NCBI GenBank assembly: GCA_964187785.1
Contig: OZ076409.1
Coordinates: 34,660,001-34,724,000 of the forward strand
Direction: 5' to 3'
Length of the DNA stretch: 64,000 nucleotides
Source: Amphiscolops sp. MND2022
Taxonomy: Eukaryota
Part shown: positions 11,691 through 41,899 of the stretch, in pieces
Layout: every line of letters starts with the position of its first letter
Numbering within the stretch: the first letter of the stretch is position 1
Notes under the pieces: model-generated
Told to the model about the DNA's origin: nothing
What the model saw: only the letters and a program-made list of their open reading frames with translations
Database searches by the model: none
Position numbers and translations under genes: made by a program

Positions 11691-11987
11691 TGATATTAGC
11701 GGTAGTGATAGCTAAATTACTCTTAGCGGTTAAACAACTGGTGCCGAGAAATGCAAACAAGCGACAGCTCGTGGAAATTTTCTTACAGCATTTTGGGAAA
11801 GTTGTACAGTAAATGAGCCGATGTGCTAAGGAAAGCCTTCGTTTTTATAACGTAAACCTTGCCAAGGAGGCTACTAGGTGCAGGAAGAACTTTGGGAGGT
11901 AGTAAGTTGTCATGCCGTGAGCATGATTGAGCAACCGAAAGTTACTGATGCCGCCAAATATACAACGTCGAATAACAAAAATCAACC

Positions 11988-13476
11988 TGTCGCAGGCTGC
12001 CGCCTGCGATGGAAACTACTATCAAATCCCGGAAGACGGCAACAATACGAACCCGATGCCAGGAGTACTCCCTATTTAGCTGAGTGGACGCAACGTCTAC
12101 GTAGCCTTAAAGAATTACCCCACTAATTATACAAAACAGTCACTATTATGATTGATAGCATAAATTACATTTTGTGCTAATGTACTTGTGTTTAGAAGTA
12201 TTTATGCGGATTAATACAATGTAAATGATTAGTAAATTGATGCAAAGCTAAAGCAGTTAGATTAAAAGCAACTTGCAGTGATAAAGGAAACGCGTTCAAG
12301 TATGGCAGTGCTAAGGCCAACTAGACGCGCAGTCCGTACATGTATTGGCCAATAGTATTAGAGCGCACGTATATTTACTGTAGCTCGTTGGACGACCGGT
12401 CCACTGAAGTATTATATATTACTGACGTCACAGTGACCAATTGCATTGCTGTATTATTAATATAGCTTGCTTCATTAAAAATGCATGTAATATGTATGAT
12501 CATGTGCTAGTAGCCGCCTTTCCATTTCAACGAGTAATCACCGTCACAACCTACAGTCCTTGTCATGACGTCATGAAGTTTATTATTAGATAATGATGTA
12601 ACTTAGGGTGCTACTATTTATAGTAACATGACTAGCAAAATAAGGCGTGTCATGCATGTGAAACTATATAAAGAAGGAACTGTGGACTGGAGGGACCAGA
12701 ATTTCTGATACTTCCAAACGATATACTTTGCGAAATACCAGTACAACTGTGATTTGATATCTCTTACGCTTGTTCGGTTTTGTTCTGTTGATATTGATTT
12801 CTTCAATTCATTGTTAACTGCACTCAACTTTCAATGCCTTCGACTCGTAAGCAAAAGGCGAAAGAGAGACGCTCAAGACAATTAGAAATGTTGTCTGATG
12901 TAGAAAATGTTGATATAATGTTAGGTAGTTATTCAAGAGAAGATGAAGATAATAACGCTAGTGAGAATGAAGCCAACTTGGACTCAGGGTCTAGCCGGCC
13001 ACAGCAATGTTCAAATACTTTAGGAGAAGACTTCAGGTCTTTATTTAATGCGAACAGCCGGGAAAATAGTGAAGTTACTATTGAAACTACTAGATTGATT
13101 AACGAGGAAATTTCCAATCAAATGTCAAGAAAACTGAATGAGATCAAGGATAGTTTGAATAACCAGATTCAGGACGCAATTAGTAGTGCAATTACCGGAC
13201 AAATACTTCCTTCCATTCAAAACACGTTGCAAACTCAGGGAAAGGCGAAACGTAACACAATGGACCGGGGGTCCATTGAGCGACAGGAAAGAGTCAAGGT
13301 CACAGGTTCATTTATAAGGGACAAAAGGTCCGCTGAGCGACAACGGAACCCCGAAGTAGATAATAGCCAAAATATCTGGGAAAATCATCCAAGGAAGTGT
13401 TTCATGCAAGAAAATATTAGACAAATGTCCCGACAAGGTTCGATTGACTCAGGAGATATTGAACAAAACTACGACA
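11988..13476 (+). repeat. 5' LTR (1489 bp)
   Basis: Direct repeat of 26153-27641 with about 8 substitutions noticed by eye; TG...CA ends with a 7/8 terminal inverted repeat. Confidence 0.97.
12665..12672 (+). promoter_or_regulatory. Candidate LTR TATA box (TATATAAA)
   Basis: Lies ~170 bp upstream of the gag ATG and is present in both LTRs. Confidence 0.5.
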
Positions 13477-14600
13477 TGGTGACAGGAGCCAACCCTACCC
13501 CACATATGGTTCCTGAGTTTCTCACTGGACGTCCCATGCAATCCCGAGAACCTCTGCAACGCCAAGACTCCGACAATGTCGAACCCCAGAATACCACCCC
13601 TCAGGTCCCTGAGGCCACAACACCAAATACTTCCTCTGACCCTCTTCACCGACTGGCAGACGTACTAGTTGGCATGCATAACCGTCCATCAGCCCAAACA
13701 TTGATGGTACGCCCAGTCAGCACGGCTACACTGACGTTCGATGGAAAGTCAGAGAAATTCGAACTCTTTGAAGATCTCTTTCACACAATGATCAAAATGC
13801 AACCTGATATGACTGAAACAATGAAAATAAACCACTTTCACTCATTGTTGCGCAAAAACGCGCTACAAACCTTCCGTAATATCAATACAGCAAACAGGCA
13901 GACGTTGGAAGACATATTGGCAGTATTTCGTCGGAAATACGTCAAACCTGAGTCCCAGGCGACCGCCAAACACAAATGGCACAGATTGGTATTTGATCCA
14001 AATACCATGAAACTGCCGGATTTTCTTGAGGAACTCAATCAAGGAGCTGAAAAAGCGTTTGGCGAGAATGCTCAGGCCATGATTGATAGTCTTCTATATG
14101 CCAAATTGCCACCGAAATTGAAACGTTCAGTCAATATGGCTAGACTAGAAAACGCTACATATGAAGAAATAGTTACTCACCTGGAACGAGAACTAGAACT
14201 AAACGGACTTGAGGAAGGTGACGACATTCCCGTCCCAACAATGTCAACTGCCCCTACAGCAACACGACCGGGAACTGGCCTTCTTTCTTCGGGAATAGAC
14301 CCAAACATTACCTGCAACTATTGCAAAAAACCTGGCCATGTCAAAGATGACTGCCGAAAACTCAAGCGAAAGGAGGAACAACGCCGCAATGAAGGGCAGG
14401 ATACCAAAAAAGAATATCCTAAATGTCCAACTTGTGACAAAACAAATCACCCGGCGGAACGATGTTGGAAAGGCGCAGGAGCCCACCTCAAGCCCAAAAA
14501 CCTCAAACTAGACGATTCCAAAACTGACGAAACGCCTACCAGTACTAGTGACGTTCCAAATAAGCAAACAACTTCTATATTAAAAAATCCAAAAAACTAG
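12834..14600 (+). CDS. gag: Gag (588 aa); the first 214 codons lie inside the 5' LTR
   Basis: Capsid-like core (FDGKSEKFELFEDLF...) and two Zn knuckles (CNYCKKPGHVKDDC, CPTCDKTNHPAERC); open frame across the LTR end and PBS. Confidence 0.93.
   Translation: MPSTRKQKAKERRSRQLEMLSDVENVDIMLGSYSREDEDNNASENEANLDSGSSRPQQCSNTLGEDFRSLFNANSRENSEVTIETTRLINEEISNQMSRKLNEIKDSLNNQIQDAISSAITGQILPSIQNTLQTQGKAKRNTMDRGSIERQERVKVTGSFIRDKRSAERQRNPEVDNSQNIWENHPRKCFMQENIRQMSRQGSIDSGDIEQNYDMVTGANPTPHMVPEFLTGRPMQSREPLQRQDSDNVEPQNTTPQVPEATTPNTSSDPLHRLADVLVGMHNRPSAQTLMVRPVSTATLTFDGKSEKFELFEDLFHTMIKMQPDMTETMKINHFHSLLRKNALQTFRNINTANRQTLEDILAVFRRKYVKPESQATAKHKWHRLVFDPNTMKLPDFLEELNQGAEKAFGENAQAMIDSLLYAKLPPKLKRSVNMARLENATYEEIVTHLERELELNGLEEGDDIPVPTMSTAPTATRPGTGLLSSGIDPNITCNYCKKPGHVKDDCRKLKRKEEQRRNEGQDTKKEYPKCPTCDKTNHPAERCWKGAGAHLKPKNLKLDDSKTDETPTSTSDVPNKQTTSILKNPKN
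13477..13490 (+). promoter_or_regulatory. Primer-binding-site-like sequence (TGGTGACAGGAGCC)
   Basis: TGG immediately follows the LTR's terminal CA. The primer tRNA cannot be assigned by eye. Confidence 0.65.
14591..14597 (+). promoter_or_regulatory. -1 programmed ribosomal frameshift slippery heptamer A-AAA-AAC
   Basis: X-XXY-YYZ heptamer in the gag frame directly before the TAG at 14598; pol (codons at 14597, 14600, 14603) is in the -1 frame. Confidence 0.85.
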
Positions 14601-17600
14601 ATTTGCCAGGACTCCAATTCAATGAAAAACTCCGTGTCCGACAATACGTAATATCTGATCCTTCAAACATATATTATACTGAATACTTTACCTCTCTCAA
14701 AGAAAAATCATCAGCTGACTGGCAGCAGCAGATGAAGACTCCTCCTACCTCTCATACCACTTCGGACCCTATGTCCACTAGTCTACACAATAACACTAAT
14801 ACGATACGACTTCTACCGCTTATTGACGACTACAACCCATACTACTCTGATCCAACCTATGGTTTTGACCCCTATTGGGACGCTAATTGCTACAATCAAC
14901 ATCATCTATACTTTTACTGCAATTTCAACAAACCGAGTCACTATATAGAACTAGATTCTTATGAAACTGACCAAGCCTTAAATACGACCCTTATGAAAGC
15001 CAGAGTTGACCCATGGCAACATAACACACCACCAGGATGCCAAATAAATCATACTGAGCACGACCAAGAATTTCACCCGGTGGGACCTCAGGTCGCTCTG
15101 GTTACAGCAGTTGCTGCAAGATTTGTGAACACCTTAATCACCAGATCGGGTGAACCGGACTATGTACCGCTGACAACAAATCTCGGTCTCAAATATAAAA
15201 GACGAATGCTCTATTTTCCGATTGATTTCGGCGAACTAACATTAGACGGCCTTGTAGACACGGGAGCGCTCTCTAGTGCAATCCCAGAAGCTGATCTACG
15301 TAAAATCCGATTATTAGCCCCTCAGTCGATTGTGAAAGAGGGCCCGGCGCCCAACTTCCAAATCATGGTAGCTAACGGGCAGCTGGAAACTCCAAAGAGC
15401 ACCGTCGAATTAAAGTTTGAAGTCGGAGACATTGAATTCCACGAAATATTCATAGTCATGGAAAAACTCACCAGTCCGTTGATTGGTCTTTCTTTCCTTC
15501 AACGGAACAACACCATCTTGGACATGCGACGAGGCGTCCTAAATTTTCCTTTTTTTTCAATGCAAATAAAAACTGCAGACCACAAATATACCAATGTCAT
15601 GGAACCTATTTGCATTAGGGAAGATATAATCATCCCACCTAATGACCGACACTCGGTCCTTATAGCCTCACAACTGTACGCGAACACTACAGTTACAGGG
15701 ATCCTTCAACCGAGCAACAACCTTACAGATGACGGCGATATTGCCTTCTGTGCTGCTCTAGTCACCCTGACCAATGGTCAGGTATCAGTTCACCTGAACA
15801 ACTTTACTGATAGTCCGTATACCCTCAAAACTGGTACGCAAGTAGCCACTTTCACTGTCCTCACACCAGAACAGATGAAATATGTCAAACCTATAGACCC
15901 GGTGACCACATGGCACCTCGTACAAGACAACCCTGAACACGCCGCTTATTATGCAAGTAGCCTGATCAAATCTCCTAAAAACGAGGAATCTTTTACGAGG
16001 AGAAAATTACTGGTTCCCAACACCAGAGGACCCTGGGGACCCTCAGCATCATACGCCAATCCAGAAACGAATTTTATCCGAACTTGTCAATCTTCAGGAA
16101 CTAGAAAAACTTAATCCTCAGGACGACCCTGAGTCGAGACGTCAATTCTTATCCAACTTTGATTGGACTGACTCTATGCTTCAACCTGCTGAAATAGCTC
16201 GCATAGAGGACCTACTTGTTGAATTTCATGATATCTTTGCCAGACATCGCTTCGAAATCGGTATGAACGAGGACTTCAAGATCAAATTGACACCGAAAGA
16301 TGATTCCCCGGCCTATAGTCAGAGTTTGCCAACGCCAATAAATCTCAAGGAGGATATCCTTGTAGAATTGGCCCTATTGCATCGCTATGGGATAATTACA
16401 ACACTACCATTCTCCAAATACGCGAGTCCCATTTTTGCACAAAAGAAACCCAATGGCAAACTGAGACTTCTAGTCGATTTGCGCAAAATCAACAACCTGA
16501 TCTCGGATGACTATATTAATAATAACCACCCAGTGAGTACACTTACCGACGCAGCCCAACATATGGCTGGGAAGAAGCTATTTTGCAAGTTGGACTGCTC
16601 CCAAGCATACCACTGCCTACAAATGGTGGATCAAAGGTCCATGCTTGCCTTCAATTTTGCCAGCAGAACCTTCGCGTACAGAAGACTGGCACAAGGTCTT
16701 AGTAGAGCCTTATCGGCCTTTTCTAGTTTCATGCGCGAATATTTGGATAAAGTCATCAAAGCAGACCAATGTGCCCAATACGTCGATGATATTGACATCG
16801 CTGCCAACGATGCTGAACAACTCATCAACAACCTGAGGGCCACATTCCAATGCATACAACAAGCTGGCCTCAAGCTTACGATGCATAAATGCCATTTTGG
16901 CGCAACGGAAATTGATTTTCTGGGACGCACCATCACTCCTGCTGGAGTGAAGCCACAGAGACCAATGGTCCAAAATTTCCTAGAAAATACGAAATTCCCG
17001 AAATCCAAGAAAGCACTCCAACGTTACCTGGGATTCCTCAACTATTACAGGAACTACATCCCAAGGCTCTCAGAAAAACTGACACCGTTTTTCAAATTGC
17101 TCACAAAAGATGAAAAAGTCCTGGTTACTCCGGACCTCTTGGAAAAATTCACCGAAATAAACAAGGCTCTTGACCGATGTTGTGAACTTGCGCTAAAACA
17201 ACCCTTACCGAATAAGCAAATAGCTCTTATGACAGACGCCAGCTTTTCGGCCGCAGGGTACGCGGTTCTCATCGAAGATGATCCCCTCGAGAAATATACA
17301 TCTACGAGGAAAGCATTTGCACCAGTAGCTTATGGATCCAAGACCTTTAGTCCTACCCAATTGAAAATGTCCATCTATGCAAAAGAGTTCCTAGCAATTT
17401 TCTTTGCCTTCAAGGAATTCGGACATATATTTTGGGGAACCCCGAAACCGGTGATAATACTTACAGACAACAAATCCGTCACACGATTCTTCCAGACAAA
17501 AATCATACCCCCGACTCTATGGAACGCATGTGACTATGTCATTCAGTTCAACTTCACAATTGCCCATATACCAGGCAAAAACAACACAGCCGCAGACTAC

Positions 17601-19700
17601 TTGTCTCGGCTTGAAGTCTCTCCGAAAGAGAAGCTGATCCTCAGAATCCGAGAAAACATCCCTACTACACCAATTGAACTCCACGTCCAATCGGCAGGAG
17701 TCTCGGAGGAAGAACAAATTTTTTATACCGAGGACGACGACGAGACGGAAGAACAAATTTTACAGCGCAAAAAAGACGCTAGGAACCATCCATCAAATCA
17801 ATTACCTGATATTTCCTTCGAAAAATTTACTACACACAAAAGTGACTATCACAAACTTTCCACAATTCAAAAACTATCCTACACAAACTCCCTAGCAGTC
17901 GAGCAAAACAACGACGTCATTTTACAACAATTACACCTTAAAATATTGAAGGAAAACTATTCAGAAACCATCCTAGTCCAAGACACGCGTTACCAACATT
18001 ACTGTCGCCAAATGGACCGGCTGTCCGTTATTGACGGAATCATTACAAGACAGTATTTTGACGAAACAGGAGCTGTCAAATACAATCAAGTGTTATTACC
18101 AAAACATCTGGTCCAAGATCTACTTGAATCCCTCCATGGCAAAGCTAACAAACACCCTGGAATATCCAAGATGCTCATAGAAATTCGCCAAAAATATTAC
18201 TATCCTGGCATTGCAAAGATCGTTAAAAAATGGGTGCAAGGCTGTGAAACTTGCATCAAAGATAAACGAATTCCCACCTCATCAATAACGCCCGAATTGT
18301 TAAACTTGCCCGAGTGGGACTTAGGTCCAGAGGATGCAATGCAAATTGATTTGCTTCCGAACCTGCCCCCTAGTGGCGGTTACGAAAACATCATCACTGC
18401 TATCGACGTATTTTCAAGATATCTCTTTGCATACCCGGTTACTGACGCTTCGGCTACAAGTACGGCTAAGGTCATTATAGACATAATGACCAAACATACT
18501 TACTTGCCTACCACTCTCATCACAGACAAGGGAACGGCCTTTACGTCCAAATTAGTCGCCGAAGTAGCCCAAATTCTGGGAATTCAAATAAAATGTGCAA
18601 CTACAAAACATCCGCAAACAATTGGAAAATTAGAACGCACACATGCTAGCCTTAAAGCAAATCTCAAAATGGCATCAGGTGACTATCGGCGTCAGTGGCA
18701 TAAATATCTGCCACTAGCAGTATTAAACTACAATACGACTTATCACGCCACACTGGGCTGCGAACCATCTCGAATTTTTCATGGCCGAATTCCATATAAC
18801 ATATTGGACCACAAACTTGGGATCAATCCTAACCCCAAGGTCCTTCCGACTACAGACTTTGCCGATGAATTTAAGCGGCGAGCACAAATATTAATGGATA
18901 CCACAAAGAAAAACATAATGCAGTCTTATTTGAAATACAAAGAATACTATGACCGGAAGGCTAAAGCAGCGCCCCTACAACAAAATGATTACTGCTTCAT
19001 TTTACAACCTTTAGCTGACCACCAAGGATCGAAAATTCCATTCCGAGAATACCGATGGATCGGTCCGTATGTTGTTGAAAAAGTTTTGCCGAATGGAAAT
19101 TATATAGTAAGGAAACTTAATTCGAACAAAACACAAATTCTACACCGCATTCGACTACGCAAATATGAACCGAATACAGTCCTACAAGATATTCGACCGG
19201 AAGGCAATCTGCAACCGGATGATGAAATTGTTATTCCGCAAGACGACCTTTATGTCATCACGTGGGAAACAAATTTCGGAGAATTTCCAAATTCCGCTGA
19301 CGAAACTACACTTCCGACAAGCCAAGATGGGCCACGTCATTTTAACGATCCTGGCAATGACGTCTTGGTTCCGGACGAAATTTTCACCGATGTGGACCTT
19401 AGGTCCACCGGGCCTCAGGAAAATGGCGCCAGGGCCCCAGCGGAATTCCTCAACGACGAGGACCTAGGGTCCACCGGGCCTCACCAAACCAATGACTTAG
19501 AGTCGCTCGACAAAGCCCGCTCAGATCGCATAAACGATCGGCTTGGTGACCAACAATCGTCAGGAGGGAGCGATACTATCGTGCCCGAAGTATTAGATGA
19601 TGAAACTGACATGATTGTAGAAAATGAAAGTCCTAGGGGAGGGAAATATAACCTTCGTCCTAACCCCACCCCCAACTTCACTGATGAATACAGACACTAG
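14597..19700 (+). CDS. pol: Pol polyprotein (aspartic protease, degenerate dUTPase-like segment, RT, RNase H, integrase), broken by one frameshift near 16000
   Basis: LVDTGA protease; YVDD RT; TDAS RNase H; H-x5-HPG...CETC zinc motif and D,D,E integrase core (QIDLLP, ITDKG, KLER). ORFs 14603-16114 and 16176-19700 join through ENYWFPTPEDPG... if one frameshift is assumed at ~15990-16005. Confidence 0.92.
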
Positions 19701-19853
19701 TCAAACATGTAAATTACGGCCTCTAATATGTATTCTGTAGGAGACTCGACTGACTGAAAGACTATCTAGTATAGAATAAACAATAACTACAAACAGTAAA
19801 ACAAGTTCATATAAACAAATGTTTGTGAAAATACAATTGTACTTTATGTACAA

Positions 19854-22800
19854 TTAAGATTTACTTGCACTGGTACAGGCATGGAGCGTCTCGCCAGAGG
19901 ATGAGCGATCGCGACTTGAAACACTCTTACGAGTACGCTTTTTCCCGCGAGGAAAATAGATGGTCGTCGGCGGTTCGATGGATTCAACTCTTTGAGTCTT
20001 GCTGGAGGACTGAGCGGCGCGTGGGCACGACTTGGTAGGATCCAATCGCTCGAAGATTTTAGCTCTCCCAAAGAAGTCAACACTCAACCAGGGACAGTAA
20101 ACGTCACTTAGAGCGGTACTGCCGAAAGTAGGCTCCAATGCGAGAAACTTAGTCACAGACTCCTCTCTGGTCATAACTTCTTCCCCTCGGGCCACATTAG
20201 TGAAGTAGGACTGGACGGGTTGTATAAGATCAATCAATTGACAGGTTGGATCGTCGGAATAGAAACCCCAGAATTTGATCATGGGAAGTTCAGCAAAGGG
20301 CTCATCTATGCATAGGCAGCTCAAGCGAAAGAGCTTGTGGAGGAGGGGCCTGGACTGCAGGGTCTCCTGTCCTGACAGAAAGTCTATGGTATCAAAGATG
20401 AAGAAGGTAGGTTGACTCATACTAGTATAGCGCTGACGTAGGTCATCCACGAAAGTGATGTACTCATCGAGACATTGGGACTCCTCAGTGGGGGAATAGT
20501 AATCGCGTAGGCGGAAACTACTGAATAACTGCCCGATACAATACTTGCCCAGCACTAAAGGTTCAACAAGAAGGGTATTGAGGTCAAAAGTCCACGGATG
20601 ATGTTTGTTGTGAGGCCCTTGAGACCTTGGGTCTCACTGAGAAGATAAACTAAGTAACTGCGAGCTAATCGACCAAACTCCTCTTTGACGGCCTTGATGA
20701 CAGCTTCTATTGGCTCACCTTGATACTTCTTATCGTGCTTCTCTCGGTCTGCCTTCACCTTGCAAGCGTGATCGAATTTAGCTCCAAATTTCATCCGTGA
20801 CAGGAACTCGGTGATCTTGAGGGCGTTGGCTTCGGCTATAGGTAGATCAAGGATCTTCGTAAATTCAGCCTCAGGAGGAAGGTTCTTAGCATTGACGCAC
20901 CGCTTAGCGATTGCAAACAAGTACTTGCAGAGCTCTCTGTAGTAATAAAAAGACCTGTCCCGACGTCCACCAAGGCTGATAGTGAAGCTATTGACATCTA
21001 AACATGTGTAAGTGCAAAACCTTATAACAAGCCTAGATTGAATTACCTGGAAATATACTCACAATCATGAATCAACTTGTGGAAGAACTCCAGTCGGGTG
21101 GTGAACAAATCATCATGAATTATAGTCCATTCAAGACTTTGTGGCTGAAATGAAACTCAGTCAAGAGTATCACAACAAATGGACCGTAGGTCGCTTGAGC
21201 CACATGATTCTAACCTGATTGATCACAGAGTGCATCTCATGGGTAGTTGCATGGGCAGTAAGGAAAGAGTTGATTGAGGTCCAGTGCGTCTGAATTTCTT
21301 GGCACAGCTTGGGAAGGTTGACTACCTCCAGCTTACACGTCTTAATAGCCTATTAACAAATGTCAGATTATAGGTTGCAGCAACGACTTACGCTTGGTAA
21401 CTATTGTATGAAACTACCTTGGTCAACTCAGGTGCCAAAAGCGTCCACTCCAGGGCCAGGCTTCGTTCAAGAGTAATAACCAGGAACTGCAGAACGGAGA
21501 AGAAGTCGACTCTCCCGAACACACTGTAACTTCTCTTGTGCATGAGGTCCTTCACTGACAAGACGTCGAAGCGAAAAGGACTCTGGACCCCGTGGTGGAG
21601 GTATTTGCAGTTGTCTAAAAGGCAGATAAGTCCAGGAGAAGCGCCCAGACAAGCCACAATGTCAGGCCGTGTGGAAACAGCAGCCATCACATACGAGACA
21701 AGACTCAATTCAGATGATGTCTTCCCTTGACCTCTCCCAGTTCGTTTTAAGAAGACTCGGACCAGCTGTCCCGCGTGCCAGAAGCGGATGTAGAGGTTGA
21801 GGAACACCCCGTTGATCTGGAATTCGAGGGAATAGTACCCCTTCTCAACTACGTGCGTGCCAATGTCCTCAATCATTTGTAGGAAAAGGTGATGAAATAG
21901 CGCCTGAATGTAAACAGGACTGAATATTAGAAATACTACAAGAGTATGTAGCCACCGCTAAAACAGATTAGTATGGACTCTAGGTACAACGGGCTATATT
22001 GAAATACTTACGGTGATCCGTTCCTTCCCCCAGTTGAAATCAGCAAACAGTGCCTGATGGTTTACGACAACCCCGATGTCCTTCCAAAGTACTCTAAGTG
22101 CTCTGATGTCTCCAAAGGTGGGAATGTAGTGTGCAAGGACGGAAATCTGGACTCGTGCTCGGTTGGAAGACGAAGACGTCATGTGCTGGGCACCAGCCAT
22201 GAATTCATCATAAAAGGGGAATTTCTCCCATATATCCACGAGAGGGGCAGTCATGAACTTTGGAAGTTCCAGCTCCAGCTGGTATGGAGTGAGCACTTTC
22301 CCATCTTTGCCTCGGACTTGGTGGTGGATCGTCTTCGTGATGGGGTCTTCGATACCAAGATGTTCGTATCGCCACCGCTGATCTTTTCTTAAATGCCTTT
22401 CTGTGGCATAATGACGGAGAATTTCTCTAGCCCCTTTTCCGTAGATCGAGACGTTCCCCTTACAAATTTGGCAATAGAATTTGTAAGGGTTCCACCTGGG
22501 ATCGAGCGGTCCAGTAACGAAGGTCCTAGTCCAGGCCATACCTTCAAAATACTCCTCCTTCATTATCTTACAGGCCCTAGTTATTCGTCTGCGAGTGGTG
22601 GTGATCCTCTGTGGAGCCTTAGACTTGCGTTTTGTTGACTGCTGGTCTTGTAGTGCCTCAGCTTTTAAAGACGCCAACGTCTGCGCCCCAGGGCTCTCGG
22701 TTGCAGTTTGAGGCTCATTAGACTTCGGGTCCATCTCTATATTTTTCTCTCGGCAAGGAGGCTTCTTGATGGTGACAACACTCGGTGGAGTCCTCTCGAA

Positions 22801-24219
22801 ACTATAGCCGATGCTGTTAGAATTATTATCACTATGTAATGCTCCACTAGTGTAACTTCCCTCCCTGTCAGACGGATTTCCCGGCACTGTTTCCCCTTCG
22901 GAACTAGGGTAGACACTTCCTCCAGCAGAAGTGTTGGAAGGCAGATTCTTTTGTCCAACTGAAGTTCGTCCCAGGCTTAGCTTACTAGCCCGGATGACGA
23001 TATCCTCCATCATGGCATAGGATGCTCGGGCACTCTCATCAGCCACCACTCTGAGGATCGTTTGCATCTGTTCTGAATTGAGGGAAATAGTAGGATGATC
23101 CTTGGGCAGATTAAAAGCAGAAGCTTGTTGGAAATAGTGATTCACCAAGGTCCGACTAGAGCTGCTCATTTGGTGAACCCTCGATTCTTTTGCGTTTTCA
23201 ACAGCAGTAGACTCTAAACCATTAGAGTCTGAGGTTCCGATCAAGTCGAACTTTGTGGTTTTTGACGGCAAGAACAAGGCATCATCTAAAGTTGACCTCG
23301 CTTGATCCCCAGAAGTGACTCCTGATTGCACCGATAATTCAGCTTCACTGGTATAGTCCGAGTGACCACCAGTCCCAGTAGGCTCTTTCTCACCTTCTAA
23401 CAGGAAGACGTCATCATCCAGTATGGGAGGATCTTCAGTTTTTGAACTTCTGCTGTCAGAGCGTTCGCGCAGACCAGAGGTATCGACAATTACCTTGGTT
23501 TTCTTCGCTCGAATCGGATCGCGCGGCTTATGTGGGACTTCACTGAAGTTGTGGTCAGGATCCAGAAAATGAACAGGGGACTGAGAAGACGTCCCCGTTA
23601 TGCCGAATGAAGGTTGATTTGTACCTGGAGTGAGCACAAGGTCACCTCCAAAGCTCTCTTTCTCAGGCAGTATAGTCACTCCTGGAATAGGGATCGTAGA
23701 GTCACCAGCTCCCAACTCTTCCATCCGCCTAGTGAAATAAGTTAAGCAACTCTCTTGCGAACTGCTGGAATCTTGCAACAATATCTCATTGTTAGGCAGA
23801 AGTTTTGTCAGATCACGAGACTCTGCATCCTGTGGGTCTGTTATAGCCTCACTTGCCCCTTGTGCTGGAGCAGTTGCATCAGGCTCATTCGACTGTTGGT
23901 CCATGACAAGATTTTCGATGACAGTGCCAAAGGAGGTGTTGCTGTCTCCCGTGGAGGAATTAGCGGCTTGTTCATAGGCCTGTGTTTCCATTGGCTCCTC
24001 AACGGGGTCTACTGGGGATTTTAGATTCTGTCCTGTGCTGACAGTATCTTGTTCAAGAGGATTTAATTGGGTACTAGTTTTATCTGGGACCGTTGCGCTT
24101 GCGTCAGAGGCACTTTGTTCTGTGGCTTGATCAACTTCTTGGAGTGGTTGGCCAGTTTGCTCTTTATCTAAATGAAAAGAGATAAATTTACGCGGTTCAC
24201 TTCCTGCAAACAAATCCAT
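19854..24219 (-). CDS. Five-exon antisense gene inside the LTR element (~1350 aa): low-complexity N-terminus, BED/C2H2-like zinc finger, hAT-transposase-like body; one frameshift near 20590
   Basis: Exons 24219-22012, 21903-21418, 21349-21215, 21144-21063 and 20997-19854. Introns of 108, 68, 70 and 65 bp are all GT..AG and phase-compatible (0,0,0,1). Motifs: FYCQICK...HYATERH, YYSLEFQ...LYIRFW...RVFL, RPLLHKLFRLSCLCI. Confidence 0.8.
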
Positions 24220-25446
24220 CTTACCGCGGTTTGAAAATCTTCCGGAAGTAAGTTCAAAATCAAAGGTTCTTCATGAAATCTTTTCACGATGGAGGAAGTT
24301 AAAAAATCTATTCTGAGCCCTGATCAAGTTCAGTTTAGACGACATTTAAAGAACCAACCTGATGTATTGTCCATGAAGGAAGGACAGAATTTAGCTTCGT
24401 GAAGTGTTTCTGCTGAATCAGGACAATTGAATCGCAGTAGTATATTCTACTCAGTTGCTGACGCTCGCTAGACCACAGGTCCGTGAATGGTTTAAAACCA
24501 GTTTCACTCGTGAATCCTACCCGTAACTGTTATTGGGAGACTGCTGCCAATAAGGGAGTGGAGTGACGAATTCGCAATTAAGAGAATCGGAATATAACAG
24601 GCAATTACAGAATGTGGGAAGCTGGTAGCTATAGAAATTGGAAACACAAAGTCTGTTAAGCACAAAATGTGACGGAATACTTTATACCTGTATACTGACT
24701 AGAAACGGACCTGCAATACTAAAATGCTTACGTCTACTAAAACTCAATTAAAGGAAGTCGTGGCTTACCAATTAATCTTTTTCTACCTAACTATAATAAT
24801 TAGTGTACTTCGACACCGATCAACTTGTTTGATTATACCCCTTTACCACGGATGGAACCTGCCAGTGAAATCCTTTTACTCTTCTCATTAGTATATATAC
24901 CGAGCGTGATGGAACTGATTTGCTTCATAATTTCATGAGCTTATTCACCATCACCATTATTATCACTTGCATTCATTCATAAACAAGAGGAAGCCAGTAA
25001 GCTTTCATTGCGATTTTATTTATTTATTTAGCAGCGATGATTGGTCAATCACCGCCTGTCGCTCAACGGACCTTCGGTCCTTTGAAGTTGAGTAATGATA
25101 TTAGCGAAGTGTTAATAAACACCGTCACCAAAGCAAGATGACCCTCAAGAGGCTGTTAACGAGTGGCGGATAGTGACAAAGCAAACATTAGAGTAGCTGC
25201 TAAGAGCCCTCCAACCTCATAGATGAAACGAAAATGACTCGAGAAATCCTAACCTAACTTATAAGGAAACCTCTGAAAAGTTATGGAGTATTCAGGGATG
25301 CTTTCCCCTCCAAAAATTCCCGCGCAATTGCGAAGGGACCGGGAGTCTATAGAGCGAGAGGAAATCATTCTCAAATCTGAGTTTGGCTCGTCTAGTTGCA
25401 AATCAAAATTGCGAAGAAAATCTTCTTAAACAGGTATAGATCGACA

Positions 25447-26244
25447 ATGAGCCTACCATTCAATCTTGATGATTTACACACCCCATTAGTCAGTCCGAGC
25501 TATCTCTCGTCGGATGATCCTATGGAAATAGACTCAATTTCAGCTGCAGGATCTGACGACAGCGATATACAAGTAATCGCTTGTTACCGGGAACAGCCAG
25601 CTTTCTCAGAAACTTCAGCCGCAAGTAGACAAATGACGGTCGACACTACGAATTGCTTGGGGGGCGACACGTCGTCTTTGTGGCCGGAGGACGATTTTAT
25701 AGAGCAATTGTTACAAGCCGACTACGATTACTCAATTATGGGAGGGGGCCCTCCGGTTCGGAATGGTTCAGGCGGCTATGAGATCAGCCAATGTGCGGGA
25801 CTACCCCGTATTCCCGATTCGCCAATATCTCCCCCTTTACATGAAAGAGGACCTAACTACTCGGTAAATACACACCCGGGCCTAAATGTGACAAACGATT
25901 ACCGCGCCTATAATTCCCACATACAAGGCATTAGTATTAGAGTGTCAAACAAATGCGGGGAACCGAACCTTGCAAACTACGGGGACTGTGTGGTCTGCGG
26001 CAGGTCTTACGAACAAATCAAAGAAATGACCGCACTAACTTTCCTAGAATCGACGACTACCAGCTGTGAATCTTATACGGAGAGACAGAGAAGAAGAGAA
26101 GCATTCTTAGCTGGCATGGAAGCTGGGACAGTTCTTCTCGTTCCTAGGGGACTGTCGCAGGCTGCCGCCTGCGATGGAAACTACTATCAAATCCCGGAAG
26201 ACGGCAACAATACGAACCCGATGCCAGGAGTACTCCCTATTTAG
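25447..26244 (+). CDS. Accessory ORF3 (~265 aa), unknown function, CxxC motif; crosses the PPT position and ends inside the 3' LTR
   Basis: ATG at 25447 lies within track ORF 25396-26244 and is preceded by an acceptor-like TTCTTAAACAG. Contains DCVVCG. The last ~30 codons lie in the LTR (from 26153). Confidence 0.7.
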   Translation: MSLPFNLDDLHTPLVSPSYLSSDDPMEIDSISAAGSDDSDIQVIACYREQPAFSETSAASRQMTVDTTNCLGGDTSSLWPEDDFIEQLLQADYDYSIMGGGPPVRNGSGGYEISQCAGLPRIPDSPISPPLHERGPNYSVNTHPGLNVTNDYRAYNSHIQGISIRVSNKCGEPNLANYGDCVVCGRSYEQIKEMTALTFLESTTTSCESYTERQRRREAFLAGMEAGTVLLVPRGLSQAAACDGNYYQIPEDGNNTNPMPGVLPI

Positions 26245-27641
26245 CTGAGTGGACGCAACGTCTACGTAGCCTTAAAGAATTACCCCACTAATTATACAAA
26301 ACAGTCACTATTATGATTGATAGCATAAATTACATTTTGTGCTAATGTACTTGTGTTTAGAAGTATTTATGCGGATTAATACAATGTAAATGATTAGTAA
26401 ATTGATGCAAAGCTAAAGCAGTTAGATTAAAAGCAACTTGCAGTGATAAAGGAAACGCGTTCAAGTATGGCAGTGCTAAGGCCAACTAGACGCGCAGTCC
26501 GTACATGTATTGGCCAATAGTATTAGAGCGCACGTATATTTACTGTAGCTCGTTGGACGACCGGTCCACTGAAGTATTATATATTACTGACGTCACAGTG
26601 ACCAATTGCATTGCTGTATTATTAATATAGCTTGCTTCATTAAAAATGCATGTAATATGTATGATCATGTGCTAGTAGCCCCCTTTCCATTTCAACGAGT
26701 AATCACCGTCACAACCTACAGTCCTTGTCATGACGTCATGAAGTTTATAATTAGATAATGATGTAACTTAGGGTGCTACTATTTATAGTAACATGACTAG
26801 CAAAATAAGGCGTGTCATGCAGGTGAAACTATATAAAGAAGGAACTGTGGACTGGAGGGACCAGAATTTCTGATACTTCCAAACGATATACTTTGCGAAA
26901 TACCAGTACAACTGTGATTTGATATCTCTTACGCTTGTTCGGTTTTGTTCTGTTGATATTGATTTCTTCAATTCATTGTTAACTGCACTCAACTTTCAAT
27001 GCCTTCGACTCGTAAGCAAAAGGCGAAAGAGAGACGCTCAAGACAATTAGAAATGTTGTCTGATGTAGAAAATGTTGATATAATGTTAGGTAGTTATTCA
27101 AGAGAAGATGAAGATAATAACGCTAGTGAGAATGAAGCCAACTTGGACTCAGGGTCTAGCCGGCCACAGCAAAGTTCAAACACTTTAGGAGAAGACTTCA
27201 GGTCTTTATTTAATGCGAACAGCCGGGAAAATAGTGAAGTTACTATTGAAACTACTAGATTGATTAACGAGGAAATTTCCAATCAAATGTCAAGAAAACT
27301 GAATGAGATCAAGGATAGCTTGAATAACCAGATTCAGGACGCAATTAGTAGTGCAATTACCGAACAAATACTTCCTTCCATTCAAAACACGTTGCAAACT
27401 CAGGGGAAGGCGAAACGTAACACAATGGACCGGGGGTCCATTGAGCGACAGGAAAGAGTCAAGGTCACAGGTTCATTTATAAGGGACAAAAGGTCCGCTG
27501 AGCGACAACGGAACCCCGAAGTAGATAATAGCCAAAATATCTGGGAAAATCATCCAAGGAAGTGTTTCATGCAAGAAAATATTAGACAAATGTCCCGACA
27601 AGGTTCGATTGACTCAGGAGATATTGAACAAAACTACGACA
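26153..27641 (+). repeat. 3' LTR (1489 bp)
   Basis: Direct repeat of 11988-13476, followed by TSD CAACC. Confidence 0.97.
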
Positions 27642-27700
27642 CAACCAAAACGAAATTGAACAATCAACAACGTGGTAAACAAAACAGCATCACGGAATGA
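26999..27700 (+). other. LTR-encoded Gag N-terminus reading out into flanking DNA (chimeric 233-aa ORF)
   Basis: Nearly identical to Gag residues 1-214, then 19 flank-encoded residues before TGA. Confidence 0.85.
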
Positions 27701-28322: not shown

Positions 28323-28704
28323 TGTTACGACTATTCACCGGTGTAATTTTATGAGTAGTCGCAGTAGTTTTGGTTTTAATTGGAGTCGAGGTTGCATTTT
28401 TCGGAACGTTTTCGGACTCAGAGTCTGTTTCTTCGGTAGCTGTTATGACGGTTTGTTTTTAAGACGTAGGGGCTATTAGTTTTAACATTTCCTTTTGGTT
28501 TTCAGCCAAGATTTTAGCAAAATCAGACATTATCTCTTTCCTCAGCGAAGACTTGATTTCCTCTAGATTTTCAGTGAGTACTCTAGGAGATTTGCTCGTT
28601 CCCGCTACGGGGTTCAAGTTTTGGCTAGTCTCAGGTATCGGAGTCTCAATTTCAGTAGAAACTAATTCCTCAACAGCTTTTCTTTTCTGGCTTCTAGTAG
28701 TCAT
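28323..28704 (-). pseudogene. Gag N-terminus encoded inside the solo LTR (MTTRSQKRKAVEEL...TPVNSRN), one in-frame stop
   Basis: 127 codons from ATG at 28704 to the LTR end with a single TAA at 28461-28459. The basic N-terminus resembles MPSTRKQKAK of the large element. Confidence 0.7.
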
Positions 28705-29672
28705 TTTTAGAAGGAGAGAGAGGATGTTCTTTGGAAAACTCGAATTCTTCAAAGAAATATGGTTTTCAAAACGAAGTATTACCGTAGCAAATTAAGAAAA
28801 AGATTAACTTATTTTACAAATCCCTAAGTATATATTCCTTCACAGCATCATTTGTTCCTCACCAAAAATTCCTAGGAATCCCTAAAATCGGTTTTGTTCA
28901 TCAAAAATGCCTAATCAACCTTATTATTTCAACCCTTCTACTAATTGTTCACAATTTAAAATTCCTAGTCACGGCTCCCTTACGGAGTACTTGTTGAAAT
29001 CATTTTTGTTCAATAATATCATTTCCGGTTTGATCGTGGAAAAGGCGGCAAAATGAAAGTCTAGTTGAATTTTCATCGCGAAAAGCACGCAGGCGTGATC
29101 AATGATTCATCTCGAGGCTAGTGAAAATCGTCTGTTCGCGTTAAAAGAATGACAAGCAAAAATTGACTACGGAAATATCTCGGAGTGATTTTGGATTAAT
29201 GTGCTAAGGATATTTTGAAAAGAACAAATCATGCTAGAGAAATGATTAATACAGATCAAGAACTGAAATGGCAAATAATATATAGCACGGTATCATTCTG
29301 AGCTAATTTTACATGCATTGAAACAATTTTACATGTGTTGAAACATAATGGCTTGGCAAATACAGGTCAATAGATTATTTAGCCCAATAAACATAACATA
29401 GTAAATGTACAAAACACCTTTTTCCAAAATGAAGGAAAGCACCTTTCGTTCAATCATTTCCCTGGCCTTAACCTGTAGCACGATCATTTTGATTAGTTAT
29501 TAAAACGGGAATAATCCGGAAAGGTATTATTTTGGTGTTATGATATTTTAACCATTCCGTTTCGGTTCCGTATGGCATGAGGAATATCTTGATATGTTAA
29601 AACAATTTTGATCTTGCAACTTTTCCTTTAGTCGTTCTATACGTATTAACTTTAGCCATAACCTTGTCATTT

Positions 29673-29895
29673 TACAATTTGCTCCGTAAGCGCTCCGTAC
29701 GTATTAAGATTAGGTATAGTTTCATCGCTGTACAATTTGCTCCGTAAGCGCTCCGTACGTATTAAGATTAGGTATAATTTCGTCGCTTTACAATTTGCTC
29801 CGTAAGCGCTCCGTACGTATTAAGATTAGGTATAATTTCATCGCTTTACAATTTGCTCCGTAAGCTTTCTGTACGTATTAAGATTAGGTGTAATT
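29673..29895. repeat. 58-bp tandem repeat (~4 copies) within the solo LTR
   Basis: TACAATTTGCTCCGTAAGCGCTCCGTACGTATTAAGATTAGG... starts at 29673, 29731, 29789 and 29847. Confidence 0.95.
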
Positions 29896-30728
29896 GGCTA
29901 GCTGTCAGCGGAGCTAGAACGGAGTAAAAGGCCATTCTTAAATCATTCTTAGTGACGTCACTCGAATAATTCTCGTTCCCTTGAGCGCAACTATGCTAGC
30001 TTTATCTGTGACGCTATTGGTCCGTAAAATTAGAAATGCCAGTATTTTGCTTGTTTGAGCGACGCTGCCATTACGTTGCAAGAGCTTATTTAAATCACTT
30101 GATTGTAGTTCAAATAGGCTCTTGCAACCACTTCAGCCATCTGAAACAATTTTATTATAAAATCTTGCGTTCTTTTCATTTTAAATTGTATGAATTCCGT
30201 TGGGATTGCGGAATTTAAATACTGTTTTTGATGTTTTCATTTCAGTGTGGAAAAACAAAAATGATCCCAGAGTTAAGAATATTTTCATTTTGTTGTTTGG
30301 ATCCGTATGGACTTTTCAGCAGGCAAAACCGGAAGTAATAGAACGGTTACGCATGAAAACTTTATACCGGAAGTTCCGTTGTGTGTAAAAATCACTTTTG
30401 GATATTTTACGTATCGTTTCCGTTAGATTAAAATCGCTTTTGTTCTGATTAGTAGTTCGTACTACAGTTTAAGCAAAGGTAAGTATTCAGTCAAAGTTTT
30501 TACCTAATTTTGTGTGGTTCTGCCATGTCCTCGTCCTCTTGCAAATTTCGGTATTCCCCCGCAACAGGAAAAATCCCGACCGGGAGCGTGTCGTGACAGA
30601 TATCAATGCAGATTCCTTGCGTTTTCAGGAAACAGAACATAAAAGGCCGAGAACTGATCAGAGGTTTCTAGAAATTAAAAATCATATGAGGGAATTGATG
30701 GTGTTGTTCAAGACTCTTATCGAATAAG

Positions 30729-37269: not shown

Positions 37270-38169
37270 TTCCCCCTCTTCGGAATTATGGGAACCAGCT
37301 TTGATCTCCATTGGTTTCTTTCGGATTGTTGTTTCTTTTCTTTGTTGCATTCTCTGGGCTGCGGGGTGAAATGGATTACCGTTTTCTGGGTCTTCGGCTT
37401 TTGTTCTAAATGGTTCAATGATTATTTAAAAAAGTACTTATTCCACCCAGTTTTTCACCCTTTTGGCAGTCTTAAGTTTGCTTGATCTTCGTACCCCCTT
37501 TTCTCCCCCTATGGTTTCTGTAACTTCCACTCCCTCGATACTTAAATCTACTATACCTTTGTCTACCGATGTAGATGCTTTTGTGGAGATCCGGTTGGGG
37601 TTGTGTCGCTACTTTGACGTTACGTTGGTGCGTCCGTTCCGTGCGGCAGCCGACCGGCGATGAGACCATAGGCGTTTGGCAGTCGGGCGGTGATTCCCTA
37701 AGTTTTGTCTCTTCACCTTTGGGATATGTTGTTACATCAGTGACGGTAAGTTCTGAGTCGGCATTCACCGTCGTCGGTGCTTCCCCGGCCGTGGTGGACT
37801 GGCTGTCCGAGATTATGGTAATGTCGGGAATTTCTTCCGCTTCTCTTGCTGGCATGGTTGGGAAGGTTTTACTCGAACTTGCTTGAATATTTTGGTCATC
37901 ATGCTTCTTGTTTTCAGCCATTATCCGTTTGTGGGTTTTATATAGTTCGTCATTGCTAAAACGGCCGCATCTAGTACATCTCTTTCTTGGCTTTCTTTTT
38001 TTCTCTATTTTTTTTGACGGCTGAAATTTTAAGGGGTTAGACTCCAGTTTCTTATGAATTGTTTTTCCATCGGCCATAGTTACAGTGTGTTTAGTTCCTT
38101 TAACCGCGATTAGAATTCTATCAGTTTTAAATCTGCAATTCATTGCGTTCGGCTTGGTTTATTCGTCGA

Positions 38170-41100
38170 AAAATTGGCATTCTTTAAAATAATCGCTTAC
38201 CGATCTTCATCTCCTCCTTGATTCGTTGAACACCAACTTGTCTGCAAGTTCTCCGTCCAAATCAAGAATGGTCAGTCATGAATTCCAGTCAAACAATAGG
38301 CAAGTAGGTTGGCCATCATGTTGGTGATAGGCGTACGTGATTTTTGTCCAAAAATGCATTTGAAAAGGTATTATTTCAAATATATTTTTTCAATGTATTA
38401 AGTGGCGTTTGTCTAATAGTTTTGATTGCCACTTGGACGCTTTCTACAAAGAAATCCGTCTTCTAAACTGGCTCCAGTTAGTGATTTGATCGTGCGTATT
38501 GTTCTCTCGACCATTCCGGTTCCCGTATGCAAGTTAGGGGTACACCGTTTTCAGTTTATTATTTCGCCGTTACAGTAGTCTTTGATCTCATGGCTTTTAA
38601 AGCAGCCGCCGTTATCGGTGCGAATAGTCCGTGGTGTTCCATTATCTACACAGTATTTAGTTAAAAATTTCATTACGGTCCGTGAGTCCGTATTCTTGCA
38701 AATTTCGGTTGTTGGCCATTTACTAAAACGATCAATATCTACTAAAATATAAATGTCTCCGCGAGTTTTTAATTTGATTGGACCAGCAAAGTCCAATTGG
38801 ATTTCTTGGTTAGGTTCAGCTAAAATTTCGATTCTATTTATCTCCGTATGTGGTAATTGTGTTTTTATATTCTTACCTGCTGCTCTGCAGTCAGGACAGT
38901 TTTTTGATTTTCTCGAATCTCGCGGTGTCAGCCGGGCCACCAAAATGTTTCCACTGACTGGTCCAGTTTGTTTGTGGATACATGTACCTGATGTAAAAAC
39001 CCTATTATCGTCGACCTCATTGCCTCGGGGATAACAATTTTATCATTGTAAAATAAAACTCCGAAACGGGTTGTCAGGTGTTCCCGGTGTGGACGATACG
39101 GATACAATATATTGTCCGGTCGTCCTGCTTCAAGGGCAATTATTGCATCCAGCATTTTGGCATCTTGTGTCGTTTCTTCGACTAATAGTGGTAGATCCAT
39201 TGAGAAATCTTTCTCTGCTTTCTTTATCGTTTCTGCCGTCGTCTCATTACGGTGTTCTTGCAAAGTTTTTTGCTTAGCCGTCTGTTTCAGGCGGATGCGG
39301 TTTACGCTGTCGTGTTTCCGCAATTTTTTCAGTACTTTGGTCGGGCATTTTTCCTGCTAGATTTGACTTGTCTGGCTTTCACTGTCTGATGATGCATTGA
39401 TTCACGACTTGTGTATGTTTTCATTGTACTCTCGGAGTGGTCTTGTCCTGAAGGTTTCGCAGTATTGAAAAAAGCGATTGTATATCATGATGTTTATCTT
39501 ATCGATTTTTTTCTCCTTTGTTGGGAGGGGCGATACTCCTGTCCCAAGATTGGGGTCTAGTTCGGTTTGAGAATTTTGTTTCCTTCCTGGCGTCTTTTGT
39601 TTGTCTCGGGAGAGTGTCCTCTCTTTTAAAAGATGAACTCGATATCGATGTCGTTTACCTCGTCCATCTTCGATTTTGACGGTTAATTGTTTGCAAAATT
39701 TTCACTTTTAGCTGGTTTGATGTTGTTTTGCGGTAAGAGTGTTTGAATTGAGTGTATTAAAGAAAATACATACCACGACTTTCCGAACGACTCACAGTCA
39801 TCTTCAAAATACTGAAGGAAACCAATATATTCTACATTTCAAAAGGTCACACCACCACTTTTGAGCACCATTGTTTCTTAATTTGTTCACAAGCTCGTGC
39901 GCTGCGTCATAATTTGTCGGAATATTGTGTCGGCGTCGATCCACCGATATATTGCATAATGCTTTTCTTCGTACGATTATTTTCGAACAAACCGTATATT
40001 TATTGAACATGAATTCTTCTTCGGCCTCTTTTTCGTCGTGTACGCACCGTGTTTCTGTCTCATTGTCGTGTGTAAAAGGATGGCGGCTCAGATAATCCGT
40101 TAGTGGAATTTTCTTACGGGCGGTCTATTGTACGTTAACGTCAAAGTGGCGCAATCGGTCCAACCAGCGTGTGAGTCTTGCGCTGTACTGCTTGTGGGCC
40201 CAATTACGTTTTAGTAACAATTGTAACGCTTGATGGTCGGTTAGGAGGTTCACTTTCTCTCCGTAGACGTAATATCTAAAATATTCAAGTCCCGATGAAG
40301 CGCCCAACAGTTCTAAATTGTTTATGGCTTTTTTTTCAAAAGCGATTGGGAATCTACTAGAAAAAGCTACCGGTTTGAAAGTCTCACCCTCCATTTGCCA
40401 TAAAGTTGCCCCTACGCCTGTGTTACGTGCATCGGCTGTTATGTAGTTATCGTTTTTGCGGATCGAAATGCGCCAGGCTTTGTGCTTCAGTATTTTTTTT
40501 TGATTGTACAAAATCATCATTTACTTCTTTTGTCCACTCCAATTTTACAACTTTCTTTTATAATCTTCCTATCCTATCGGTCTTTTTGCAGAGGTTATTC
40601 AGAAGTTTTGACAAATGTAGGATTTATCCCAAGAATGATTTTTATTCTTTGGTGTTTATGGGTGCTTTCAGCTTCGTTATGGCTTCAGTTTTATCTTTGA
40701 TTGGCTTAACCTCATTCTTGGTAATTTGATACGCCAGCCAGGTTAGATCTTCTTTGAGTAGTTCCGCCTTTTTCTCCGTTCCTCGATAGCCAGCTTCTTG
40801 CAGCTTGGATAGGACATCGTACAGTTCTTGTCCATGTTCTTCTATCGTCCCGTTTGTGACGCAAATGATGTCGTCTAGCCAGACTGGTGTTTTGATTTCT
40901 GGGACCATGTCTATATGCTCTTGAAACAGGGGTATCCGATTGGCCGTAAACGCCTTTCTTGAATCGGTAATTTCTCGTAAAGTCACCGCCAAAATTTAAA
41001 AACACAATGTCTTGACGCCTTTATGGATATTTTTGCCTATCCGTAGGCGTAGTCTAAGTCAATTTTGGACATGCATTTTTCGCCGTTGCTTTTTGTAATC

Positions 41101-41810
41101 TTTTCAGGTTTTTTACTGGTTAGTTGTTTCATATTTGTCATTGTCGTTTTTCTCTTTATGCATGATTTGTTCACTTTTCGGGAATCCAATGCATATTTTA
41201 CCGACTCGTCTTTTTTGATTGTTATCACTGCCAGTGGTACGAAACAGTCTTCTGTCGTTTTGTCGGCTTTTTCTACATGTCCTTTTTCAATCAATTTTTC
41301 CAGTTCGTTATTCACTATTTTTTGAAAATGGATAGGTACTGGCCTCCCTTTATGTTGTATCGACTTGGCGTGTTTGTTCAATTGATTGTCTATAGTTAGG
41401 TCTTTTATTGTGTGGTTCTTTCTATAAAAGTTTTCAAATTCTTCGAAAAGTTTCTCACCTCTTCCGTTGGCGGTTATGATCCGGATGACATTCGTCTCGC
41501 GGTTACCTTGTAGATCAATCTTCAGTTTGTCTTGCAAGTCCTGTCCCAGCAGAGGTCGTGTGTTTTCCTTTTCTGTGATTAATATTGGCAGTGTCACTTT
41601 GTTTCTTTCCGTTTTGACTTCCACCAAGGCTTCACCTATGAATTATTTTGGACTTTTGTTTACGTCAACAAAGCACATTGAAGTCGCCTTGATGTCTTTT
41701 GGAATAATAATGGGCGGGATTATTGTTACTGGAGAACCAGTGTCAATAGTGAATTCTATTGGTTGTCCCCCCATCAATAGTATTGCTTTGAAGAAGTCTA
41801 CGCAATGAAT
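38170..41810 (-). pseudogene. pol: Fragmented pol (PR, RT, RNase H, integrase)
   Basis: FTIDTGSPV (PR), KIDLDYAY and WLDDII (RT), ITADARNTG...LLTDHQAL (RNase H), FWWPG/CPDC and IQLDFAGP...IRTDNG (IN), spread over many frames. Boundaries approximate. Confidence 0.88.
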
Positions 41811-41899
41811 GCCGTTGACGGACTGGATATGGTCTATCTCCGGCCAAGACTCCCTGTTGCCGCCGGTATGTTCTTCCTGTATCCGACTTACTGTTTTCG

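Follow-up and report, generated by a model that had tools for sequence, protein, structure and literature searches.

A Ty3/gypsy element of Amphiscolops whose gag reading frame opens inside the long terminal repeat and continues through the att site and the primer-binding site

Introduction

Where does the gag gene of an LTR retrotransposon begin? A stretch of 64 kb from Amphiscolops sp. MND2022 (contig OZ076409.1, positions 34,660,001–34,724,000; hereafter the window, with positions counted from its first base) raises this question, for a sequence-only reading of it had placed the gag start well inside the 5' long terminal repeat (LTR), against the established position downstream of the primer-binding site (PBS). 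That position is valid for typical elements only, as the GAG of Ty1 also starts in the LTR and has a coding PBS. It has to be asked whether the repeat limits are correct, whether the LTR-encoded frame is conserved as protein in other copies, and which expression strategy would account for it.

Results

Structure of the element and limits of the repeats

The element spans positions 11988–27641 (15.65 kb; Table 1). Self-comparison of the window reveals a sole long direct repeat (11987–13476 vs. 26152–27641, 99.5% identical), the limits of which were refined to 11988–13476 and 26153–27641, giving two LTRs of 1489 bp each with 8 differences between them. Both have TG...CA termini and terminal inverted repeats matching over 7 of 8 bp, and the 5-bp target duplication CAACC is present on both outer sides (11983–11987 and 27642–27646). 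The PBS starts with a TGG that directly follows the terminal CA of the 5' LTR, with no spacer; we take it to resemble tRNA-Leu-type sites, and no tRNA gene was found within the 64-kb window. The tract before the 3' LTR consists of only 6 purines followed by one C. A better polypurine tract, of 12 purines (19635–19646), is located near the end of pol and is possibly central or ancestral.

Pfam-type domain matches in pol follow the order protease, dUTPase-like, reverse transcriptase (RT), RNase H and integrase, which is the gypsy order; the integrase-before-RT order of Ty1/copia (Pseudoviridae) is not that of this element. The best solved relative of the RT is the Ty3-G Gag-Pol (E 7e-46, the next one 1e-27), a similarity that does not place the element in a clade. 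On its LTRs, its pol order and this RT relative the element is classed as Ty3/gypsy (Metaviridae). The pol of the window copy is broken by a frameshift near 16000. At the heptamer A AAA AAC at the end of gag, a shift to the −1 frame would lead without a stop into the protease ORF. Within Gag, DUF1759 was found above the cut-off (E 3.7e-6), zf-CCHC and Retrotrans_gag being weak and below it; a fold search with the low-confidence Gag model gave capsid matches only at E 0.3 or worse, and nothing at E 0.001.

Table 1. Positions of the element, its parts and the neighboring solo LTR within the window
Feature	Position	Strand	Remarks
5' target-site duplication CAACC	11983–11987	+	repeated at 27642–27646
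5' LTR	11988–13476	+	1489 bp, TG...CA, terminal inverted repeat 7/8
TATA-like box	12665–12672	+	putative transcription start ~25–30 nt downstream
gag ORF	12834–14600	+	588 aa; LTR-encoded N-terminus, capsid-like core ~290–460, putative zinc knuckles
LTR-encoded part of Gag	12834–13476	+	214 codons + 1 nt
Predicted 55-residue helix	13080–13244	+	Gag residues 83–137
Coding att site and PBS	13469–13488	+	Y-D|M-V-T-G-A
Slippery heptamer A AAA AAC	14591–14597	+	end of gag; putative frameshift site
pol	14591–19700	+	protease, dUTPase-like, RT, RNase H, integrase
Antisense ORFs within the element	19857–24270	−	BED-finger/hAT-like by lead-level score
3' ORF	25447–26244	+	265 aa without a Pfam family; last 92 nt within the 3' LTR
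Short polypurine tract	26146–26151	+	upstream of the 3' LTR, within the coding sequence of the 3' ORF
3' LTR	26153–27641	+	same open N-terminal frame (26999–27641)
3' target-site duplication CAACC	27642–27646	+	
Solo LTR of a distant family	28323–30598	−	2276 bp, target duplication ATATC
Gag N-terminal frame in this solo LTR	28323–28704	−	last 382 nt

The LTR-encoded part of Gag in the window copy

The gag ORF has 643 nt within the 5' LTR, that is 214 codons and the A of codon 215. The number of codons had been given correctly by the sequence-only reading, its figure of 642 nt being one short. Codons 214–216 are GAC ATG GTG, in which the A of ATG is the last LTR base and TGG are the first PBS bases. 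The LTR limits, the target-site duplication and the ORF confirm what that reading had proposed, namely that gag starts within the LTR and that the att site and the PBS are coding, and the same holds family-wide and in related families, as described below. In the 3' LTR the frame is likewise open and extends 19 codons into the flank (ORF 26999–27700). Shuffling of the 643 nt left a plus frame open in 0 of 20000 cases, with an analytical chance of ~2e-7, and the remaining two plus frames of this stretch contain many stops. The coding parts of the 5' and 3' LTRs differ by 3 synonymous and 2 non-synonymous changes, which is not significant (P ~0.06).

The rule for start contexts derives from vertebrates. 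Since by this rule the context of the ATG at 12834 is weak, with T at −3 and C at +4, and those of M29 and M215 are stronger, the true start of Gag could be M19 or M29 instead.

A structure model of the LTR-encoded part is poor overall (mean pLDDT 46). It contains a predicted basic helix (residues 4–21) and the 55-residue helix 83–137 (pLDDT ~80–87), the rest being predicted as disordered; helix 83–137 is conserved between subfamilies and is the most confident part of the model. A search of the ESM Atlas with residues 1–230 gave a best score of 0.76 and no lead. The sole Pfam match of residues 1–214, to LBP_BPI_CETP, was far below the cut-off and was dismissed.

Conservation of the frame across the family

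A search with Gag residues 1–260 yielded 218 proteins of 323–1029 aa, and the following counts are from the best 120 of these 218. Among the homologues listed, residues 1–214 are 36–98% identical where full length and the capsid core ~95%; the start and D-M-V-T-G are kept throughout this range of 36–98% identity over the LTR part. The frame is open from residue 3 to M215 in 109 of the 120 long homologues listed, and D214 is retained in 114, M215, V216 and T217 in 118 each and G218 in 116 of them. At position 213, 118/120 of those listed have R, Y, H or C, a set that appears to match the codons preserving the terminal inverted repeat and not a conservative protein set. Over 66 full-length proteins, the mean p-distance is 0.47 for the LTR-encoded part vs. 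0.06 for the capsid core; the LTR-encoded part evolves far faster than the core, so that most of its residues are only weakly constrained.

Shorter proteins are informative about the boundary itself. A search for them found 460, of which the best 120 (P0121–P0240) were analyzed: 86 match up to residue 214 and are unrelated thereafter, 19 show an internal-type junction, 8 end earlier and 7 without D/N at position 214 were set aside. Because the LTR ends one base, an A, into codon 215, a frame leaving an LTR elsewhere in the genome requires there a residue with an A-first codon (T, N, S, R, I, K or M). Such a residue is found in 86/86 read-through proteins, as compared to a background of 0.43 and to 38/82 at the next position; some of the 86 may be one insertion counted twice, which weakens the nominal P but leaves the conclusion standing. 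The tails have a mean length of 19 codons vs. 18 expected for random flank (range 1–108). We conclude from these sequences that the 86 short proteins are 3' or solo LTRs read into their flanks. The same break at residue 214 is seen in subfamilies of 40% identity (P0335, P0338, P0340, P0411 and P0436). No relatives were found among JGI metagenome or IMG/VR contigs. The first tail residues of the 86 read-throughs are T (30), N+K (26), S+R (23) and I (7); they imply that the first flank base is far more commonly C, A or G than T, which hints at a target-site preference.

Not every 3' or solo LTR carries an open frame, as had been supposed: two clusters of short proteins, with 30 members listed, comprise 18 intact, 10 broken and 2 internal-type ones, and in the second-family solo LTR described below codon 82 is a stop. 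The 10 broken among the 30 listed suggest that 3' and solo copies decay. The conservation of the LTR-encoded part across copies is borne out by the protein-level homologues and by a simulation of neutral change: at 70% identity all 214 codons stayed open in 18 of 3000 runs, at 60% in 4 and at 42% in 0, as compared to 11 open lineages observed at a 60% cut and 5 at a 50% cut. In each of two high-copy clusters, of 116 and 41 members at about 40% identity, the frame is open from M1 in 12 of the 15 members listed, so that the active parents of both must have been open. The protein collection consists of open frames only, which biases these intact fractions upward, and an insertion may be represented twice among the matches. 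The degree of conservation at each site is correlated between the two main clades (Spearman 0.53 over 214 sites, 21 and 14 sequences), with conserved blocks common to both at about residues 1–33 and 68–130. These patterns indicate that the frame is under selection and, because there is no stop codon at the LTR end, that it is selected as the front part of Gag and not as a stand-alone LTR gene.

The Gag P0309 is a mosaic, its LTR part being 94–95% identical to one group and its post-PBS part 94–96% to another. Recombination was not found to be enriched at the LTR end, the steps lying near residues 100, 180–190 and 210–220.

Related families and a second solo LTR

A profile search gave 2771 matches; 29 of the best 150 were inspected, hand-picked for spanning the junction. 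Among these are distant Gags, with a core that is 46–86% identical, in which 114–212 residues precede a [DNHY]M[VA]T motif. The boundary is fixed for three distant groups, by the read-throughs P0542 and P0553 and by a solo LTR present in the window, and is elsewhere given by the motif alone. In P0391, P0404, P0406, P0416, P0427 and P0475 the junction motif H/D/N-M-V-T-G occurs in tandem, as apparent in-frame duplications of the att site and PBS; a partial second copy of the motif is found at 13503 in the window.

The solo LTR (30598–28323, minus strand, flanked by ATATC) belongs to a second, distant family. Its last 382 nt form an ATG-started frame of 127 codons + 1 nt, with the same 3n+1 phase as in the first family and one in-frame stop, at codon 82. 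The frame is similar to the N-terminal part of Gag P0476 (E 3e-9) and, with X at the stop, aligns with it end to end as a whole (score 113, maximum of shuffles 39), the alignment finishing where P0476 continues with M-V-T-G. The part after the stop, used alone, gave no match to P0476, and P0440 scored 36 against the frame, below the shuffle maximum of 41. A profile comparison of the first-family N-terminus with the second-family frame detected no homology (probability 3%). The 5' end of the solo LTR, read in N|TG phase, is open for 30 codons up to a stop, resembling the U3 tail of the first family, and about four 47-nt tandem repeats are located near 29690–29890.

Coding at the U3 end

The sequence-only reading overlooked coding at the other end of the LTR. 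The 3' ORF (25447–26244) crosses the short polypurine tract, and 92 nt of it lie in the 3' LTR. It has 56 homologues with identity down to 32%, and its U3-encoded tail is conserved down to that level. The LTR start divides one codon; in every homologue that reaches the junction this codon specifies L or V, in keeping with N|TG. In total 735 of the 1489 bp of the LTR are coding, and each of the two parts finds its proper context in a single LTR. Because this second gene ends inside U3, both att sites appear to be coding, and each end would be under protein and integration constraint at once. Retroviral genes in U3 are known, namely nef of HIV and sag of MMTV. The layout is alike in that the 3' ORF runs over the polypurine tract to a stop within U3; it differs from nef and sag in being combined with a coding U5, in a retrotransposon without recognizable env, and no sequence likeness is claimed.

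Discussion

Proposed expression of the element and alternative readings

We consider it highly probable that the element belongs to a Ty3/gypsy lineage whose U5 became the first 114–217 codons of gag, with translation continuing across att site and PBS. Its start site, its poly(A) site, its translation and the function of the N-terminal helices are what we infer from sequence. A promoter in the middle of the LTR (TATA at 12665) would start transcription near 12695, and the first AUG reached by a scanning ribosome would be that at 12834. The stretch 12659–12833, which includes the TATA and the leader behind it, is free of ATG, with a chance of ~0.01 given the ATG density of the non-coding LTR (0.09 in the second family); a second TATA-like site is present at 12413, and the LTR has no AATAAA. 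The GU-rich tract at ~12770–12800 would place the poly(A) site just upstream, so that R would be short and U5, at ~700 nt, would consist mostly of gag sequence. A single Gag, plus a Gag-Pol by −1 frameshift at 14591, would be translated across both att site and PBS. Since the coding part would be situated between the start site and the PBS, minus-strand strong-stop DNA of ~780 nt, unusually long as predicted by this layout, would copy it into both LTRs, and the copies of the frame in 3' and solo LTRs would be by-products without a stop codon.

The junction ATG had also been put forward as the start of a shorter, conventional Gag. Two forms would then be made, the long one and one of 374 aa from the ATG at 13476, via an internal promoter, like p22 of Ty1, and the truncated Gag translated from a subgenomic mRNA in Ty1 is a precedent (PMC4551931). 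M215 is kept in 118/120 listed homologues, has G at both −3 and +4, and all that a capsid needs lies downstream of it. However, this ATG is found there because CA|TGG without a spacer yields one whatever its function, and as many as 14 ATGs precede it (7 in-frame and 7 out-of-frame), which makes leaky scanning unlikely and would call for a promoter of its own. The shorter form is thus unsupported, and we regard the two-form reading as improbable.

Far less probable is that Gag begins at or after the PBS and that the LTR frame is an untranslated vestige: the LTR part does diverge fast, is mostly predicted as disordered and has no family match, but its open frame, start motif and phase are kept at 36–45% identity, beyond neutral change, conserved blocks are common to the clades, and the phase is the same in the distant family. 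We give slightly less credit still to a U3 gene expressed from the 3' LTR in the manner of nef or sag, with an incidental join to gag. U3 usually makes up most of a long LTR, and the element does use LTR sequence for its 3' gene; against this, there is no stop at the LTR end and the tails are random (1–108 codons), all families keep the frame in phase with gag, and a TATA and an ATG-free leader are located upstream of the frame. A repeat longer than the true LTR, owing to local duplication or an assembly error, would leave the gag start outside the LTR. This has next to no probability, as TG...CA, inverted ends, PBS, polypurine tract and target duplication are all found at the limits and the 86 read-through proteins break at the same base; the LTR limits, the second-family solo LTR and the read-through break point refute it.

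On a further reading, which seems rather doubtful to us, each 3' and solo LTR would be a dispersed promoter-plus-ORF producing the N-terminal domain of Gag (its basic and its long helix) with a random tail. Such fragments would accumulate with copy number, bind or poison full-length Gag as a form of copy-number control, and supply start-plus-domain modules for new host genes; if the read-through fragments were expressed, they would allow a direct test of self-limiting copy number.

Comparison with known systems

A gag starting in the LTR is, as a principle, already known from Ty1, and it is the scale and the coding at both ends that are the new part. In Ty1 of Saccharomyces cerevisiae (Ty1/copia) translation of gag starts at an AUG within the LTR, and the PBS is part of the gag frame: the available text of PMC5454406 and PMC7969010 gives a 5' UTR of 53 nt, a PBS at RNA nt 95–104 and an LTR of 334 bp with R from nt 241, coordinates from which ~41 coding nt in the LTR are obtained by arithmetic, and changes in the PBS are described there as preserving the GAG amino-acid sequence (PMC5454406). 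Unlike Ty1, the window element has 643 coding nt, ~15 times more, with a whole conserved helical domain, and it has the gypsy domain order, an LTR of 1489 bp and a U3 end that is coding as well. The Ty1 exception is in this way extended from ~14 codons to a whole domain, and both att sites, the PBS and the polypurine tract can apparently be protein-coding at once.

By its layout, with PR-dUTPase-RT-RH-IN, a Gag with candidate CCHC knuckles and extra ORFs after pol, the element resembles Juno, Vesta and TelKA of rotifers (PMC5408684) and Burro of planarians (PMC6431247), and according to these papers rotifer, fungal and planarian gypsy elements have a dUTPase that follows the protease and precedes RT. 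The likeness is one of layout; the rotifer elements have LTRs of 159–551 bp, and those accounts, in their available text, report no gag in the LTR. A literal-phrase search of openly accessible articles, main text only, found no published report of a gypsy gag starting hundreds of bases within the LTR or of coding at both ends. The available text of PMC7175516, PMC2774666 and PMC9911081 has nothing on a gag-in-LTR layout, and Troyka, as described in that of PMC12440569, was set aside as irrelevant to it.

For genome annotation, a large class of orphan 'genes' of 215–260 aa would be explained as read-throughs of 3' or solo LTRs, which matters in genomes where this lineage is abundant. The exchange of LTRs between subfamilies would furthermore be a route to chimeric Gag, P0309 being the one clear mosaic.

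Other features of the window

The element carries an antisense unit of several ORFs (19857–24270, minus strand), probably spliced, in which an ORF of 741 aa ends in a BED-finger/hAT-like part with Atlas scores of 0.83–0.89, a lead only. A nested DNA transposon was considered as its source, and no terminal inverted repeat with an 8-bp duplication was found; for this reason the unit may be a captured transposase-derived gene. The region 37475–42710 (minus strand) is a decayed gypsy-type element of another kind, with gag and integrase matches, broken in many places. An intact-looking Helitron/Helentron Rep-helicase of 2283 aa is encoded at 48423–55274 (plus strand); it contains tandem repeats, starts with a JAB/MPN-like domain at the N-terminus and has an endonuclease domain at the C-terminus. 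A 370-aa ORF without a family (46748–47860, plus strand) is located ahead of it. Positions 1 to about 8000 are occupied by a satellite array with 47-nt units arranged in higher-order repeats.
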